Virus record (IMG/VR): IMGVR_UViG_2698536471_000014
Reading direction: 5' to 3' (one strand)
Length of the DNA: 4,127 nt
Source of the DNA: a virus
Taxonomy: Duplodnaviria > Heunggongvirae > Uroviricota > Caudoviricetes
Under the pieces are notes generated by a model that made no database searches, had not been told where the DNA came from, and saw nothing but the letters and a program-made list of their open reading frames with translations. Shown piece after piece: positions 1 to 4,127 of this stretch. The stretch's first letter is position 1, and the number at the start of each line of letters is the position of its first letter. The translations under genes were made by a program, and so were the position numbers.

Positions 1-71
1 TCCTGACTTTCCAGAACCATACGAATCGCCCGCTGACGGACTTCGGGGGAAAAACGAGTATTTTTAGTCAT
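1..71 (-). CDS. IS3-family transposase OrfA, N-terminal 23 codons only (partial, runs off the window start)
   Basis: ATG at complement 69-71 preceded by AAGAGG (complement of 80-85) at about 8 nt; translation MTKNTRFSPEVRQRAIRMVLESQ; frame open to position 1. Confidence 0.8.
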   Translation of the reverse strand, partial: MTKNTRFSPEVRQRAIRMVLESQ

Positions 72-100
72 CCTGTTTACCTCTTTCTCAGGGAGTTGAG

Positions 101-125
101 TCTCCTGGATTTCCGGGGCGGTTCA
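101..125 (-). repeat. 25-bp terminal inverted repeat (IRL-type) of the IS3-family element
   Basis: Reverse complement of 101-125 is TGAACCGCCCCGGAAATCCAGGAGA; identical at 21 of 25 positions to the plus-strand sequence at 4103-4127. Confidence 0.75.
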
Positions 126-947
126 CTGGCGGATGATCCTGCCGTTCGGGCCGTGTTCCGCAATGAGGCAGTGATCCGTCGTGCTGGTGGCGTGGAATGT
201 CTTGAAAGCTGGTTACTTCGTGAAAAAGGCTGCCAGTGGCCTCATTCCGACTGGCACAGCGAGAACATGACAACAATGCGACACGCTCCGGGCGCAATCC
301 GTCTGTGCTGGCACTGCGATAACCAGCTGCGCGATCAGTTCACGGAACGGCTGGAATCAATGGCAACGGATAACTGTGCCCGCTGGGTGTTGTCTGTTGT
401 GCGTCGGGATCTCGGTTTTGATGACAGTCATGTTGTGACAATGCCGGAACTGTGCTGGTGGCTGATTCGTAATGATCTGGCGGATGCCTTACCGGAAAGT
501 GCAGCCCGTAAGGCACTGAGATTACCGAAGCCTGTTGTGCCGTCTGTTACCCGGGAAAGTGACCTTGTGCCTTCGGTTCCTGCCACCAGCATCATCCAGG
601 ATAAGGCGAAAAAGGTGCTGGCGCTGAAAGTGGATCCGGAGTCGCCGGAGTCTTTTATGTTACGCCCAAAACGTCACCGCTGGGTTAATGAAAAGTACAC
701 GCGCTGGGTTAAGACGCAGCCGTGCGCATGTTGTGGAAAACCTGCTGATGATCCCCACCACCTGATAGGCCACGGTCAGGGGGGAATGGGTACAAAAGCG
801 CATGACCTTTTTGTGTTGCCTTTGTGCAGAAAGCATCACGACGAGCTGCATGCGGATACCGTGGCATTTGAAGAGAAGTATGGCTCCCAGCTGGAGCTGA
901 TATTTCGTTTTATCGATCGTGCGCTGGCAATAGGCGTACTGGCGTAA
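126..947 (+). pseudogene. DUF968 / YdfU-like prophage protein, 5'-truncated by the IS insertion (native part 126-947; probable pseudogene or N-terminally deleted product)
   Basis: The tool ORF 96-947 has no in-frame stop upstream to position 1, so the frame runs straight through the IS terminus at 125; the tool 'start' at 96 is a TTG inside the IS inverted repeat. First ATG in the native part is at 267 with only a weak SD. C-terminus carries a Cys/His cluster (CACCGKPADDPHH...CRKHHDELH). Stop TAA at 945-947. DUF968/YdfU naming is by recollection and synteny (immediately upstream of Q). Confidence 0.6.
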
Positions 948-960
948 GTGGAGAACGAGC

Positions 961-1713
961 ATGAACCTTGAAGCCTTACCAAAATATTACTCCCCAAAAT
1001 CTCCAAAATTGAGTGATGACGCACCGGCGACAGGCTCTGGTGGTTTAACGATTACGGATGTGATGGCTGCGCAGGGGATGGTGCAGTCGAAAGCACCGCT
1101 TGGGTTTGCCTTATTCCTGGCAAAAGTTGGTGTTCAGGATCCTCAGTTTGCGATTGAAGGTCTGCTCAATTACGCGATGGCACTGGATAACCCGACATTG
1201 AATAAATTGAGTGAAGAAACCCGGCTACAGATTATTCCTTACCTTGTGAATTTTGCCTTTGCTGATTATTCCAGGTCTGCGGCAAGTAAGGCTCGTTGTG
1301 AGCATTGTGCTGGTACTGGATTTCATAATGTATTGCGCGAAGTGGTGAAACACTCCAGAAGCGGGGAATCTGTTATCAAAGAAGAGTGGGTGAAGGAACT
1401 ATGTCAGCATTGCCATGGTAAGGGAGAAGTCAGCACAGCGTGCAGAGGGTGTAAGGGTAAAGGTATTGTCTTGGATGAAAAAAGGACCCGGCTTTATGGC
1501 ACACCTGTTTATAAGATTTGTGGGCGTTGCAATGGAAAACGGTTTAGTCGTTTACCAACCACACTGGCGCGGCATCATGTCCAGAAGCTGGTACCGGACC
1601 TGAGTGATTATCAGTGGTATAAAGGATATGCAAATGTCATTGATAAACTGGTTACAAAGTGCTGGCAGGAGGAATCTTACGCTGAAGCACAATTGAGAAA
1701 GGTGACGAGATAA
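961..1713 (+). CDS. quuQ: Late-gene antiterminator Q (lambda-Q family, QuuQ-like), 250 aa
   Basis: GGAGAA SD 5-6 nt upstream of ATG 961. Protein shows blocks recalled from lambda Q (SPKSP...SD...TDVMAA, FA(F/Y)ADY(S/C)RSA, CGRC, Q/KC..EES) and four CxxCxG motifs (CEHCAGTG, CQHCHGKG, CRGCKGKG, CGRCNGKR). Lies directly upstream of a PR'-like promoter. Stop TAA at 1711-1713. Confidence 0.85.
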   Translation: MNLEALPKYYSPKSPKLSDDAPATGSGGLTITDVMAAQGMVQSKAPLGFALFLAKVGVQDPQFAIEGLLNYAMALDNPTLNKLSEETRLQIIPYLVNFAFADYSRSAASKARCEHCAGTGFHNVLREVVKHSRSGESVIKEEWVKELCQHCHGKGEVSTACRGCKGKGIVLDEKRTRLYGTPVYKICGRCNGKRFSRLPTTLARHHVQKLVPDLSDYQWYKGYANVIDKLVTKCWQEESYAEAQLRKVTR

Positions 1714-1744
1714 GTGATTTTCGCCGAAGATGGCGACGTGATGC

Positions 1745-1785
1745 TTGCATTTTTCAAAAAATATGGATAAAATTTTTTCAACGAT
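1745..1785 (+). promoter_or_regulatory. PR'-like sigma70 late promoter with promoter-proximal pause element (Q engagement / qut region)
   Basis: -35 TTGCAT (1745-1750), 17-nt spacer, -10 TAAAAT (1768-1773), then tttttcAACGATGGG (AACGAT at 1780-1785). This parallels the lambda PR' arrangement as I recall it (TAAATT-tgactc-AACGATGGG), where AACGAT is the -10-like sigma-dependent pause signal. Confidence 0.6.
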
Positions 1786-1819
1786 GGGCTTTGTATACCC
1801 GAAGTTAAGAAAAAGTAGA

Positions 1820-1843
1820 AAACCCGCTGATGAGCGGGTTTTT
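1820..1843 (+). terminator. Rho-independent terminator, tR'-like, ending a short PR' leader transcript
   Basis: Stem AAACCCGCT (1820-1828) / AGCGGGTTT (1833-1841) with loop GATG, followed by a T-run to 1843. About 60 nt downstream of the predicted start site. Confidence 0.7.
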
Positions 1844-2135
1844 GTGCTTTAAATAGGGTAATAGAGATGTTGAATCTCATTACGGGATTCATGTTAGTTT
1901 ACTTATTATTTATCGGGTGACTTTGTTTTTTGCCTGATGTTTAAAATGCTTTCTTCCAGTACAATGTCCATAGATACAATGAGTCTGCTTATTATATTAT
2001 TAGCAGAGCTATTAAGGTCAAAGTACAGCATAAGCTTTTAAAGCCAATCAACCAGTCATCAAGACAGACGGGTTTATTCATGAAAACTCTCCATGTTTGA
2101 TTCGATGGGGCTTGAAGTTAAAGCTTTAATATAGC

Positions 2136-2348
2136 TCATGAAAGGTAAACATTGGCAGCTGATGGTCCACGCAGACCATTTATCCGGCAAAATTCCACGC
2201 GTAATCCGGTGGTAATTTCTTCTGCATCGCGGAGATTGAGCGCTGAAACATGAAGCTGGACATCGATACGACCATCGGATGGGGTTATAAGACCTTTGCC
2301 GCTTTTGCCGTCAAAGGTTTTGAGAATTCCTGTCATTTTACGGGACAA
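2136..2348 (-). CDS. cspF: Cold-shock-domain protein, CspF/CspH-like (70 aa)
   Basis: Translation [27 protein letters not shown]...[13 protein letters not shown] has CspA-family length and architecture. Start is TTG (complement of 2346-2348) with AAGGA SD 6 nt upstream on the minus strand; the in-frame ATG four codons in is 18 nt from the SD. Lacks the aromatic RNP1 residues seen in CspA/CspB, as expected for CspF/CspH. Confidence 0.85.
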
Positions 2349-2453
2349 AAAAATTCCTTAATACTGATAACTTGGCGCACTATACACACGTTCCTGAAGA
2401 AAGCTATAGTTTTTTGATGGGGTTGAAGATGGCTGGATGTCTAAAATAAACAT

Positions 2454-2648
2454 TGCTTCATATGTTCAACTATGCGTTAATGATTGCGTCGGTTTGAAGA
2501 ACAGACGATATACGAAGTAGTTTACTAAAGCAGTTCTCATTTCAGGTGTTATTCACTTATTCCTTCTTTGAGTCTCTCCAATTAAGTACGAAGTCGTTTC
2601 TGTTATACAAGCCATTTATGCCGAAAGGCTCAAGTTAAGGAATGTAGA
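2454..2648 (+). promoter_or_regulatory. cspB promoter and long cold-shock 5'UTR (cold-box-like and upstream-box-like elements)
   Basis: -35 TTGCTT (2454-2459), 16-nt spacer, -10 GTTAAT (2476-2481), then CGGTTTGAAGAACAGAC, which parallels the cspA promoter and cold box as I recall them (CTTAAT...ACGGTTTGACGTACAGAC). GCCGAAAGGC about 30 nt before the start codon matches the cspA UTR motif. Leader of about 160 nt. Confidence 0.5.
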
Positions 2649-2864
2649 ATGTCAAATAAAATGACTGGTTTAGTAAAATGGTTTAACGCTGATAAAGGTT
2701 TTGGCTTTATTTCTCCTGTTGATGGTAGTAAAGATGTGTTTGTGCATTTTTCTGCGATTCAGAATGATAATTATCGAACCTTATTTGAAGGTCAAAAGGT
2801 TACCTTCTCTGTAGAGAGTGGTGCTAAAGGTCCTGCAGCAGCAAATGTCATAATTACTGATTAA
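2649..2864 (+). CDS. cspB: Major cold-shock protein CspB-like (71 aa)
   Basis: [53 protein letters not shown]...GPAAANV: canonical CspA-family sequence with RNP1 KGFGFI and RNP2 VFVHF. AAGGA SD 7 nt upstream of ATG 2649. Stop TAA at 2862-2864. Confidence 0.9.
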
Positions 2865-2975
2865 AATTCATAGTTTGTCTGTATACGATAACGAAGAAGG
2901 CTGATGCCTGAGTGGAGATACAGACAGAGTGGTGAATATTGGATCTCTTTAATAAAGAGTAAGGAGGTCCAATAC

Positions 2976-3011
2976 ATGAAACAATGGCCAGCATATTTGG
3001 CAATAACTTAA
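2976..3011 (+). CDS. 11-codon mini-ORF (MKQWPAYLAIT) behind a consensus Shine-Dalgarno; candidate small protein or leader peptide
   Basis: AAGGAGGT (2961-2968), the ideal anti-SD complement, lies 7 nt upstream of ATG 2976; stop TAA at 3009-3011. Support is the translation signal only, with no homology evidence. Confidence 0.2.
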   Translation: MKQWPAYLAIT

Positions 3012-3146
3012 TCAGGAAAAGTATGCTAACCATTGTGGTGAAGTGCAGGTTTGCTGCATGAATAGTTTTACAGCAGAAGCTAACTGCTGGCATAGCAAAA
3101 CAAAGTGCGTAAGTGGATGACTCCCACAAAAAGTACCACAATATTA

Positions 3147-3168
3147 AACCCGCTCAGGCGGGTTTTTT
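3147..3168 (+). terminator. Rho-independent terminator, potentially bidirectional, between the cspB unit and the minus-strand small ORF
   Basis: Stem AACCCGC (3147-3153) / GCGGGTT (3158-3164) with loop TCAG, followed by TTTTTT on the plus strand. On the minus strand the same hairpin is followed by TTTAATATT, a weaker U-tract. Confidence 0.7.
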
Positions 3169-3227
3169 ATTATCTGCTTTAAATATGTTATTAAAATATA
3201 AAAAATACTTGTTACGAATAAAATCAA

Positions 3228-3398
3228 TCAAGCTACAGCTTTAAGATTTGTCTGGAATACTTTGTTGCAATGAGGGCAGATCAAAAGGGCACCTTTTTGT
3301 ACTCTTGAAAAACTGTGTTCTGACTCTTGGGTGCAGTTTGGGCAGGAACATTTAACGAGATAATTACGGCGTGATTTTGAGTCTTTACGTTCTGACAT
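3228..3398 (-). CDS. Small Cys4 zinc-ribbon protein, 56 aa (alternative upstream ATG at 3449 would give the 73-aa tool ORF)
   Basis: MSERKDSKSRRNYLVKCSCPNCTQESEHSFSRVQKGALLICPHCNKVFQTNLKAVA has two CxxC pairs about 20 residues apart. The internal ATG (complement of 3396-3398) has an AGGAAAA SD about 7 nt upstream; the ATG at 3449 has no evident SD. It may correspond to a prophage-encoded small zinc-binding protein of the YnfU type, but that name is from uncertain recollection. Confidence 0.55.
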   Translation of the reverse strand: MSERKDSKSRRNYLVKCSCPNCTQESEHSFSRVQKGALLICPHCNKVFQTNLKAVA

Positions 3399-3616
3399 AG
3401 GCTTTTCCTGTATAAATGGCCGTATACAGTACACTAAATATGAAAACATATCTCGTATTATTATTTAATATATGATTTTCTTTTAAAATAATTACCCACA
3501 TTTTTAATGTGTCTGTTTTTTAGCGCCGTTGAGAACAACGTTTGCTATAAAAACTACCCCATAGACTCCGATCTTTTCAAACATATTGCACCATCTGTGT
3601 ACATCGGGGTGAGGAT

Positions 3617-3832
3617 ATGAAATCAATGGATAAGTTAACAACAGGTATCGCCTATGGCACATCGGCTGGTAATGCTGGTTTCTGGGCATTGCAGTTACTC
3701 GATAAAGTAACTCCGTCACAGTGGGCTGCAATCGGTGTGCTGGGTAGTCTGGTATTTGGCTTGCTGACGTACCTGACAAACCTTTATTTCAAGATTAAAG
3801 AAGACAAGCGTAAGGTTGCACGGGGAGAGTAA
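3617..3832 (+). CDS. essQ: Phage-21-type class II holin / pinholin (S21-like), dual-start antiholin and holin
   Basis: [71 protein letters not shown]: two hydrophobic segments and a basic C-terminus, closely resembling S21/EssD as recalled. GGGGTGAGGA SD upstream of ATG 3617; second in-frame ATG at 3626 (M1-K-S-M4 dual-start motif). Stop TAA at 3830-3832. Confidence 0.9.
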
Positions 3833-3836
3833 TTCA

Positions 3837-4102
3837 ATGACACAAAACTATGAACTGATTGTGAAAGGGATCCGCAATTTTGAGAATAAAGTTGCGGTAA
3901 CTGTAGCATTAAGGGACAAAAAACGCTTTGACGGTGAAATTTTTGACCTGGACATCTCGCTGGACCGTGTTGAAGGTGCCGCGCTGGAGTTTTATGAGGC
4001 AGCAGCCAGAAGGAGCATCAGACAGGTCTTCCTGGAAGTTGCAGCCGGGTTATGTGAAGGGGATGAGCAGTCGCCGGAAAAGCGCCCCGTAATTTTAGAG
4101 GC
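3837..4102 (+). pseudogene. Hypothetical prophage protein (YdfR-like by synteny), 3'-truncated by IS insertion at 4102/4103
   Basis: ATG 3837 lies 4 nt after the holin stop, with GGGGAGAG SD (translational coupling). Frame is open through 4102 and continues without a stop into the IS inverted repeat to the window end, so the native C-terminus is replaced. Not lysozyme-like. The YdfR assignment rests on position after the holin in Qin-like prophages, not on a verified alignment. Confidence 0.5.
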
Positions 4103-4127
4103 TGAACCGCCCCGGGTTTCCTGGAGA
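4103..4127 (-). mobile_element. Terminus (IRR-type inverted repeat) of a second IS3-family (IS629-like) element; body continues rightward beyond the window
   Basis: Plus strand 4103-4127 TGAACCGCCCCGGGTTTCCTGGAGA is a 21/25 match to the inverted repeat at 101-125 and matches my recollection of the IS629 right inverted repeat. Orientation (transposase on the minus strand further right) is inferred from the IRL/IRR variant, not observed. Confidence 0.7.

Follow-up and report, generated by a model that had tools for sequence, protein, structure and literature searches.

A Qin/DLP12-like prophage segment of Escherichia coli bounded by two directly oriented IS1203/IS629 ends

The stretch of DNA analysed here (the window, 4,127 nt) is best read, with a probability of about 0.8, as a segment of a Qin/DLP12-like E. 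coli lambdoid prophage that is flanked by two copies of the insertion sequence IS629/IS1203 and that was recovered on a contig broken at this repeat. We found that the window is the entire draft contig LODF01000036.1 (range 1-4127; assembly GCA_001609815.1). The underlying draft E. coli genome was assembled from short reads, and the IS ends of this whole contig are assembly break points, the contig ending inside the IS because a multi-copy repeat halted the short-read assembler. Since the window is the entire contig, two complete and separate IS copies are something we infer from their ends rather than see directly. A full-length, separate copy probably lies behind each end, and both events were probably simple insertions, with the remaining prophage continuing past the two copies. 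A literature search found no papers on the two assembly accessions of the lineage (GCA_001609815.1 and GCA_001440655.1). The features of the window are as follows.

1-125, minus strand: left IS1203/IS629 end, with the IRL (125 to 101), the leader and the first 23 orfA codons (71 to 3)
101-125, minus strand: IRL of the left IS copy, 25 nt
126-947, plus strand: DUF968 (ydfU-like) gene remnant (PF06147)
961-1713, plus strand: late-gene antiterminator Q (ydfT/quuQ type), intact (PF03589; annotated in the prophage of E. coli 2013C-4974)
1819-1842, no strand given: G+C-rich hairpin with T/A runs directly downstream of Q; by its position, a candidate late terminator (tR'-like)
1992-2081, minus strand: ynfS-like small ORF, 29 aa (PF23697)
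2136-2348, minus strand: cspF cold-shock-like gene (annotation)
2488-2927, plus strand: cspA-type thermoregulator RNA element over the cspB leader and coding region (Rfam RF01766, 156.7 bits, E=4.6e-42)
2649-2864, plus strand: cspB coding sequence (annotation)
3228-3398, minus strand: ynfU, putative zinc-binding protein, 56 aa (annotation)
3617-3832, plus strand: essQ class II holin, intact (PF04971)
3837-4102, plus strand: ydfR-family (DUF1327) gene, truncated (comparison with the uninterrupted locus)
4103-4127, plus strand: outer 25 nt of the right IS1203/IS629 copy (IRR, read from outside inwards)

A repeat search of the window returned the arms at 101-125 (minus strand) and 4103-4127 (plus strand) as its top inverted repeat, complementary at 21 of 25 nt (84%). 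A degenerate pattern describing both arms matched the window exactly twice and matched none of 200 dinucleotide-preserving shuffles, in agreement with the original prediction of a 25-bp IS3-family terminal repeat at both ends. IS1203/IS629 is a 1.3-kb element of the IS3 family that carries orfA and orfB and moves by a copy-out-paste-in route; its DDE transposase, OrfAB, is made through a -1 frameshift. On the minus strand, positions 1-125 are identical to IS1203 at 123 of 125 nt (98.4%, E=9e-55), a match shared by thousands of E. coli records, and the 25-nt left arm agrees with the reference IRL at 24 positions and with the IRR at 21. The orfA start characteristic of the IS629/IS1203 isoform of the IS3 family is found in the left copy at 71 to 3, about 55 nt inside the IRL (translation MTKNTRFSPEVRQRAIRMVLESQ). 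The reference for the right arm was an IS1203 copy of 1,310 bp (positions 1601-2910 of record L002); the arm is identical to the reverse-complemented IRR of this copy over all 25 nt, against 22 of 25 for the IRL. The right copy is seen as 25 nt in the window and as 39 nt in a sister contig, L004, where it matches the IRR at 38 of 39 positions and the IRL at 29. Both arms match the terminal repeats of the element, which have the form 5'-TG...CA-3'.

The termini are the IRL and the IRR of IS1203, an IS629 isoform within the IS3 family, and the assignment of the ends to an IS3-family element of the IS629 type is thereby borne out on both sides. IS1203 and IS3411 are both classed as isoforms of IS629 (PMC3271280). 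Because the left end is an IRL lying beside orfA and the right end is an IRR, the two ends have the same (direct) orientation, as had been anticipated from their sequence variants. Within its 125 nt, the left end departs from IS1203 at IS positions 20 (T>A) and 28 (A>C). No full-length match in the 5,426 complete genomes searched combines the two substitutions, and the sister contigs lack them; of these, L004 and L008 carry a standard IRL at the same left junction. Either private mutations or errors at the contig end could account for the two differences.

All top matches among complete E. coli genomes cover exactly 126-4102, and both junctions are therefore sharp. Over these 3,977 bp the window has the same gene order as the uninterrupted prophage of E. 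coli 2013C-4974 (L001) and differs from it by a single mismatch, in codon 179 of Q (nt 1495), which encodes Tyr in the window and His in 2013C-4974. Alignment to an uninterrupted prophage, the check that had been proposed for locating the original insertion sites, places them at nt 168/169 of the DUF968 gene and nt 266/267 of ydfR. The predicted truncation of genes on both sides is thus confirmed: 168 of the 990 nt of the DUF968 gene are missing at its 5' end, and 79 of the 345 nt of the ydfR-family gene at its 3' end, which leaves 266. The junctions also shape two database proteins. The 283-aa GenBank ORF KYW52080.1 (96-947) has its TTG start inside the IS end, so that this "hypothetical protein" is a chimeric ORF. 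On the other side, the ydfR frame continues into the IS, and the predicted 101-aa read-through product is WP_057768208.1, on a sister contig of 4,086 bp.

The segment is the late-regulation and early-lysis module of a Qin/DLP12-like lambdoid prophage, with DUF968, Q, accessory (moron) genes, a class II holin and ydfR in the known order. The order DUF968 (ydfU), Q (ydfT/quuQ), cspF, cspB, ynfU, essQ and ydfR is shared with Qin and DLP12 of K-12 and with active lambdoid phages, among them Escherichia phage 2H10, which is 97% identical over 126-4102. In Qin, DLP12 and 2H10, in contrast, the module is uninterrupted at the two sites occupied by the IS in the window.

The IS-bounded structure recurs throughout a lineage. 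Relative to the window, sister contig L004 spans 56-4141, L005 and L006 both cover 130-4100, and L008 begins within the IRL and has the same junction. Both junctions are present in a second assembly, and the structure is stable in roughly 20 samples from different sequencing projects. Read sets of the lineage include SRR23524045, SRR12175370 and SRR29352829. The Q protein with Tyr179 was found on only 13 contigs, all shorter than 5 kb; no longer contig carrying this lineage occurs in any collection searched. In one sub-lineage (L010) a further 676-bp deletion with TG microhomology lies directly beside the left IS, and the start of L007 agrees with it. The description as a decaying, IS-riddled prophage is a reasonable one, and this sub-lineage supports it indirectly. 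We rejected the possibility that the contig is misassembled or chimeric: both junctions are found in an independent assembly and the left junction also in independent Logan assemblies.

The history that we propose is that two IS1203/IS629 copies inserted into the prophage within the lineage of the strain, one in the DUF968 gene and the other in ydfR, with the transposase on the minus strand in both. Each genome contains the IS many times over, and the assembler therefore collapsed it and broke off the contig after the first few bases of each copy. The closest complete E. coli genome matches the window query in at least 40 places. When a sequence both starts and finishes in IS termini, it probably represents an entire short-read contig, and its "bracketing" is then as much a product of assembly as of biology. 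The original prediction of a unique segment between two IS copies accordingly stands for the two IS ends and their junctions, while the bracketing itself partly reflects where the assembler stopped. Likewise, the IS bodies do lie beyond the window for the most part, with the exception of the 125 nt of the left copy (IRL, leader and 23 orfA codons) that fall inside it.

IS629 insertion into prophages is ordinary and already known. In O157:H7, 62% of IS629 copies reside within prophages or prophage-like elements (PMC3271280), and insertions of IS629/IS1203 into lambdoid prophages of EHEC and other STEC are described in PMC3271280 and in Ooka et al. 2009, as cited in PMC9943667. The window resembles these cases in the element itself (98.4% over 125 nt at the left, 25/25 at the right), the prophage target, the gene truncations and the presence of an IS-adjacent deletion. 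It differs in that the DUF968 168/169 and ydfR 266/267 sites are used in no complete genome searched and are specific to one lineage known from draft assemblies only. The nearest counterpart is in the finished genome of EPSSH018 (NZ_CP125889.1), where an IS629-type element lies in ydfR in matching orientation and in a matching prophage module; about 0.5 kb upstream of it the holin gene, rather than DUF968, contains a second IS3-family copy. The ydfR insertion of EPSSH018 sits 36 bp deeper in the gene and therefore represents an independent event; a 3-bp duplication (TAC) flanks it cleanly, with further prophage sequence on the far side.

If the two insertions in the window were equally simple, the target duplications would be CTG on the left and GGC on the right, and the distal junctions would read CATCACAACCGCTGTGAACCGCCCCGG (left) and GGGGCGGTTCAGGCGCAGAATGTGTGG (right). 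Target duplications of IS629 are 3-4 bp long (PMC3271280). Neither of the junctions in the window was found in 5,426 complete genomes, 72,556 plasmids and 50,697 phages. An earlier scan of genome contigs for the left junction used a pattern that included the two IRL substitutions specific to this assembly and was too strict; an exact pattern free of them was not found in genome, metagenome or viral contig collections. Viral contigs gave no match to the right junction or to either of the predicted distal junctions. A left insertion with a 3-bp duplication would place an IS-encoded TGA directly after DUF968 codon 57, and the 57-aa N-terminal stub that this would produce does exist as a protein (P0031, 34 contigs). 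A related 56-aa stub (P0046) lies at the ends of contigs from many prophages of unrelated background, none of them from the Q-Tyr179 lineage. We rejected the stub proteins as proof of the distal left junction, given this occurrence at contig ends in unrelated prophages, which makes this part of DUF968 a general assembly break zone.

A first alternative is that two IS copies are present but that at least one junction is not simple, an IS-associated deletion, inversion or recombination having left an isolated prophage remnant. In its favour, IEE-dependent deletions beside IS629 vary in size between a few nt and over 40 kb (PMC9943667), intact duplications were found at only 21 of 47 IS629 sites in O157:H7 (PMC3271280), and one sub-lineage already has the 676-bp deletion beside the left IS. 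Moreover, no distal junction was recovered from the collections searched. The truncated genes nevertheless lie in the same order and orientation as in the intact prophage, EPSSH018 offers an independent case of a simple ydfR insertion with its duplication, and the stub predicted from a 3-bp duplication exists, though its origin is ambiguous. We regard a complex junction as unlikely, and prefer simple insertion of the two copies.

It is far less probable that the 3,977-bp segment and a single IS (5,287 bp together) form a circle or tandem array, excised or IS-amplified in part of the population through IS1203 recombination. An IRL on the left and an IRR on the right in the same orientation are exactly what a collapsed assembly graph of such a structure would yield, but two IS copies explain the geometry of the ends equally well. 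The stability of the structure over its roughly 20 samples accords with an arrangement fixed in the chromosome, a circle would be without a replication origin, and neither junction occurs in the plasmid collection. If such a circle or array did exist, Q, the two cold-shock genes and the holin would constitute a dosage-variable, IS-bounded cassette of the lineage. Deletion between the two direct IS repeats would be possible in principle. The claim that the segment is a substrate for deletion or excision nonetheless gained no support, the recombination product (DUF968 stub, IS and ydfR tail) being absent from the 5,426 complete E. coli genomes.

The least probable reading, that IS, segment and IS form a functional Tn3411-like composite transposon carrying Q, the cold-shock genes and the holin, is largely refuted: direct copies would leave an IRR and an IRL at the outer tips, in principle a valid pair, but the junctions are confined to one locus in one lineage and did not turn up in the complete genomes, plasmids, phages or contig collections searched, and the gene cuts are collinear with the intact prophage and therefore point to insertion in place, not to the arrival of a unit. 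Tn3411 is a composite transposon bounded by direct IS3411 copies, and the translocatable unit is a concept developed for IS26, of the IS6 family, whose chemistry differs from the copy-out-paste-in of the IS3 family. The window shares with Tn3411 and IS26 units a unique segment between directly repeated copies of one IS; unlike them, its junctions are collinear with an intact prophage and give no sign that a unit has moved. The suggestion that the segment might act as a translocatable unit was also not upheld by the searches, in which neither junction was found on plasmids, in phages or in contig collections and the same IS-bounded unit was not found at more than one location or replicon.

Two insertions of IS1203/IS629 in one prophage carry little biological weight in themselves, as insertions of this kind are well described in pathogenic E. 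coli, where they are a source of minor structural variants. Possible markers for the lineage are the Q-Tyr179 variant and the pair of junctions. The insertion in ydfR parts the holin from the endolysin genes, which lie downstream of ydfR in related prophages, and the insertion in DUF968 sits upstream of Q; together, the two fit a prophage undergoing inactivation.

The window is the whole of contig LODF01000036.1 (range 1-4127) from the draft assembly GCA_001609815.1, so that its IS termini mark where short-read assembly broke off at a repeat present in many copies; in the closest complete genome, at least 40 places match the query. This whole-contig status, with ends at collapsed repeats, is absent from the original prediction. 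An ORF of 283 aa at 96-947, with a TTG start inside the IS end, is GenBank KYW52080.1 (AMK96_26620), which is recorded on one contig only.

The prophage segment itself, 126-4102 (3,977 bp), differs from the uninterrupted prophage of E. coli 2013C-4974 at a single base, a C>T at window 1495 that converts codon 179 of Q (His179Tyr). The top matches among 5,426 complete genomes all begin at 126 and end at 4102, which makes both junctions sharp. Relative to the uninterrupted locus, the left junction leaves the DUF968 gene without its first 168 of 990 nt and the right junction leaves ydfR without its last 79 of 345 nt, as expected from the claim that genes are truncated on both sides.

Genes of the prophage segment, in order
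Gene 1: DUF968 gene (ydfU-like), 5' end cut by the left junction
Gene 2: Q antiterminator (ydfT/quuQ type)
Gene 3: ynfS
Gene 4: cspF
Gene 5: cspB with a cspA-type thermoregulator leader, 2488-2927 (Rfam RF01766, full-length match to leader and coding region, 156.7 bits)
Gene 6: ynfU
Gene 7: essQ, class II holin
Gene 8: ydfR-family gene, 3' end cut by the right junction

The cspA thermoregulator RNA at 2488-2927 is to be expected in a cspA paralogue that a prophage carries as an accessory gene. In active lambdoid phages the gene module listed above is uninterrupted; that of Escherichia phage 2H10 is 97% identical. Q and the cspB region are each followed by a G+C-rich terminator-like hairpin, at 1820-1842 (AAACCCGCTGATGAGCGGGTTTT) and 3146-3168 (AAACCCGCTCAGGCGGGTTTTTT); the two hairpins are similar, and so are the TGCTTTAAATA motifs after them (repeat families D5 and D7).

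The arms at 101-125 and 4103-4127 form the strongest inverted repeat of the window (25 nt, 21/25 complementary), and a degenerate pattern describing both matches only these two places and none of 200 shuffles, which confirms the proposed terminal repeat. The minus strand of 1-125 is 123/125 identical to IS1203, a match found in thousands of E. coli records, and encodes the orfA start MTKNTRFSPEVRQRAIRMVLESQ. As reference for the ends we used a complete 1,310-bp IS1203 copy (L002 1601-2910) flanked by an AAG duplication. The left arm matches its left terminal repeat (IRL) at 24/25 positions and its right terminal repeat (IRR) at only 21/25; the right arm, read from outside to inside, matches IRR at 25/25 and IRL at 22/25. 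Both ends are thus IS629-like IS3-family termini, as originally read. IRL at 125 and the leftward orfA put the transposase of the left IS on the minus strand, and IRR at 4103 places the right IS body likewise. In L004, a contig of the same lineage, the 39-nt right end matches IRR at 38/39 against 29/39 for IRL and the left IS part matches IRL at 70/70. Together these matches support the same, direct orientation that had been suggested for the two copies.

Two bases set the window's IRL apart from the standard IS1203 IRL, at IS position 20 (window 106, T>A) and position 28 (window 98, A>C), and the latter change creates the TTG start codon of the annotated, chimeric protein KYW52080.1. No full-length match in the 5,426 complete E. 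coli genomes has both substitutions together (the best is 123/125), and the sister contigs with this same junction, L004 and L008, have neither. Private mutation or error at the contig end could account for them.

Only 13 contigs, each shorter than 5 kb, encode the exact Q-Tyr179 protein, which makes it a convenient lineage marker.

Contigs of the Q-Tyr179 lineage
L004: GCA_001440655.1, window 56-4141
L005: GCA_011843605.1, window 130-4100; this contig occurs in 8 samples, and 3 further places are similar
L006: GCA_013501975.1, window 130-4099
L008: Logan SRR23524045, begins in IRL with the same left junction

The two junctions are real and common to a lineage of about 20 sequenced samples, and are bridged by no available assembly. 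We conclude, with a probability of roughly 80%, that two same-orientation IS1203/IS629 copies flank the prophage segment, seen here through short-read assembly; that both insertions are simple is less certain. With the repeat collapsed, the geometry of the ends would fit a circle or tandem unit of 5,287 bp containing one IS just as well, but two chromosomal copies are favored by a structure that stays constant in many samples and by the lack of either junction on plasmids. The original prediction also held that the segment could be deleted by homologous recombination or excised as a translocatable unit. The modelled recombination product (DUF968 5' stub, one IS, ydfR tail) is in no complete E. 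coli genome, the best coverage of 84% coming from an IS merely near one flank, and neither junction is in any plasmid or phage record. These searches thus give no support to movement or recombinational deletion of the unit; of the earlier interpretation, the IS identity, orientation and truncations stand, and the mobile-unit and deletion ideas are unsupported.

The IS bodies are not visible in the window. Exact scans of genome, viral and metagenome contig collections with the observed and predicted junctions gave no match; the first left-junction scan, overly strict because it held the two assembly-private substitutions, was redone without them. If the left site had a 3-bp duplication, the TGA of the IS would come directly after DUF968 codon 57, and a 57-aa protein of this kind exists (P0031). 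DUF968 stubs were rejected as evidence for the distal-left junction, since an adjacent 56-aa stub ends contigs in many unrelated prophages, none of this lineage. At L013-L022 (position 6001 to locus end), contigs from many unrelated assemblies and prophages break off in the DUF968 gene after 167-169 nt, where the window has its IS junction; stubs of 40-69 aa also occur often. We take these contig ends for a repeat boundary of a general kind, shared by paralogous DUF968 genes of prophages; a recurrent hot spot for IS insertion at this position is a possible alternative.

The surroundings of the site fit ongoing IS-associated decay, with a deletion in a sub-lineage and an independent insertion in strain EPSSH018. 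In L010 (1-60; Logan SRR29352829) window 805 directly follows the left IS end and a CTG, which makes a further deletion of 676 bp (129-804) from the DUF968 remnant that is backed by the start of L007 (GCA_040167175.1). The joint has a 2-bp TG microhomology. That the first 1-3 flanking bases are kept speaks against a cut precisely at the tip of the IS and is in line with microhomology-mediated joining. The deletion resembles the IEE-dependent deletions adjoining IS629, whose lengths run from a few nt to >40 kb and which involve microhomology-mediated end joining (PMC9943667). In the finished EPSSH018 genome (NZ_CP125889.1; L011 4183-7361) two IS3-family copies interrupt the same lysis module, in the holin gene and ydfR. 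The IS629-type insertion in ydfR is 36 bp further downstream than that of the window and shares its orientation; a TAC duplication flanks it cleanly, and prophage sequence goes on past it. The pattern points to repeated, independent insertion of IS elements into a small lysis-module region.

IS629, together with its isoforms IS1203 and IS3411, is abundant in pathogenic E. coli. It produces duplications of 3-4 bp and in O157:H7 has 62% of its copies in prophages or prophage-like elements (PMC3271280); many gene-inactivating and deletion polymorphisms are due to it (PMC9943667). The window adds one more instance of IS629 in a prophage: its insertion sites are specific to the lineage, but such insertions are already known, as are the element and the prophage module.
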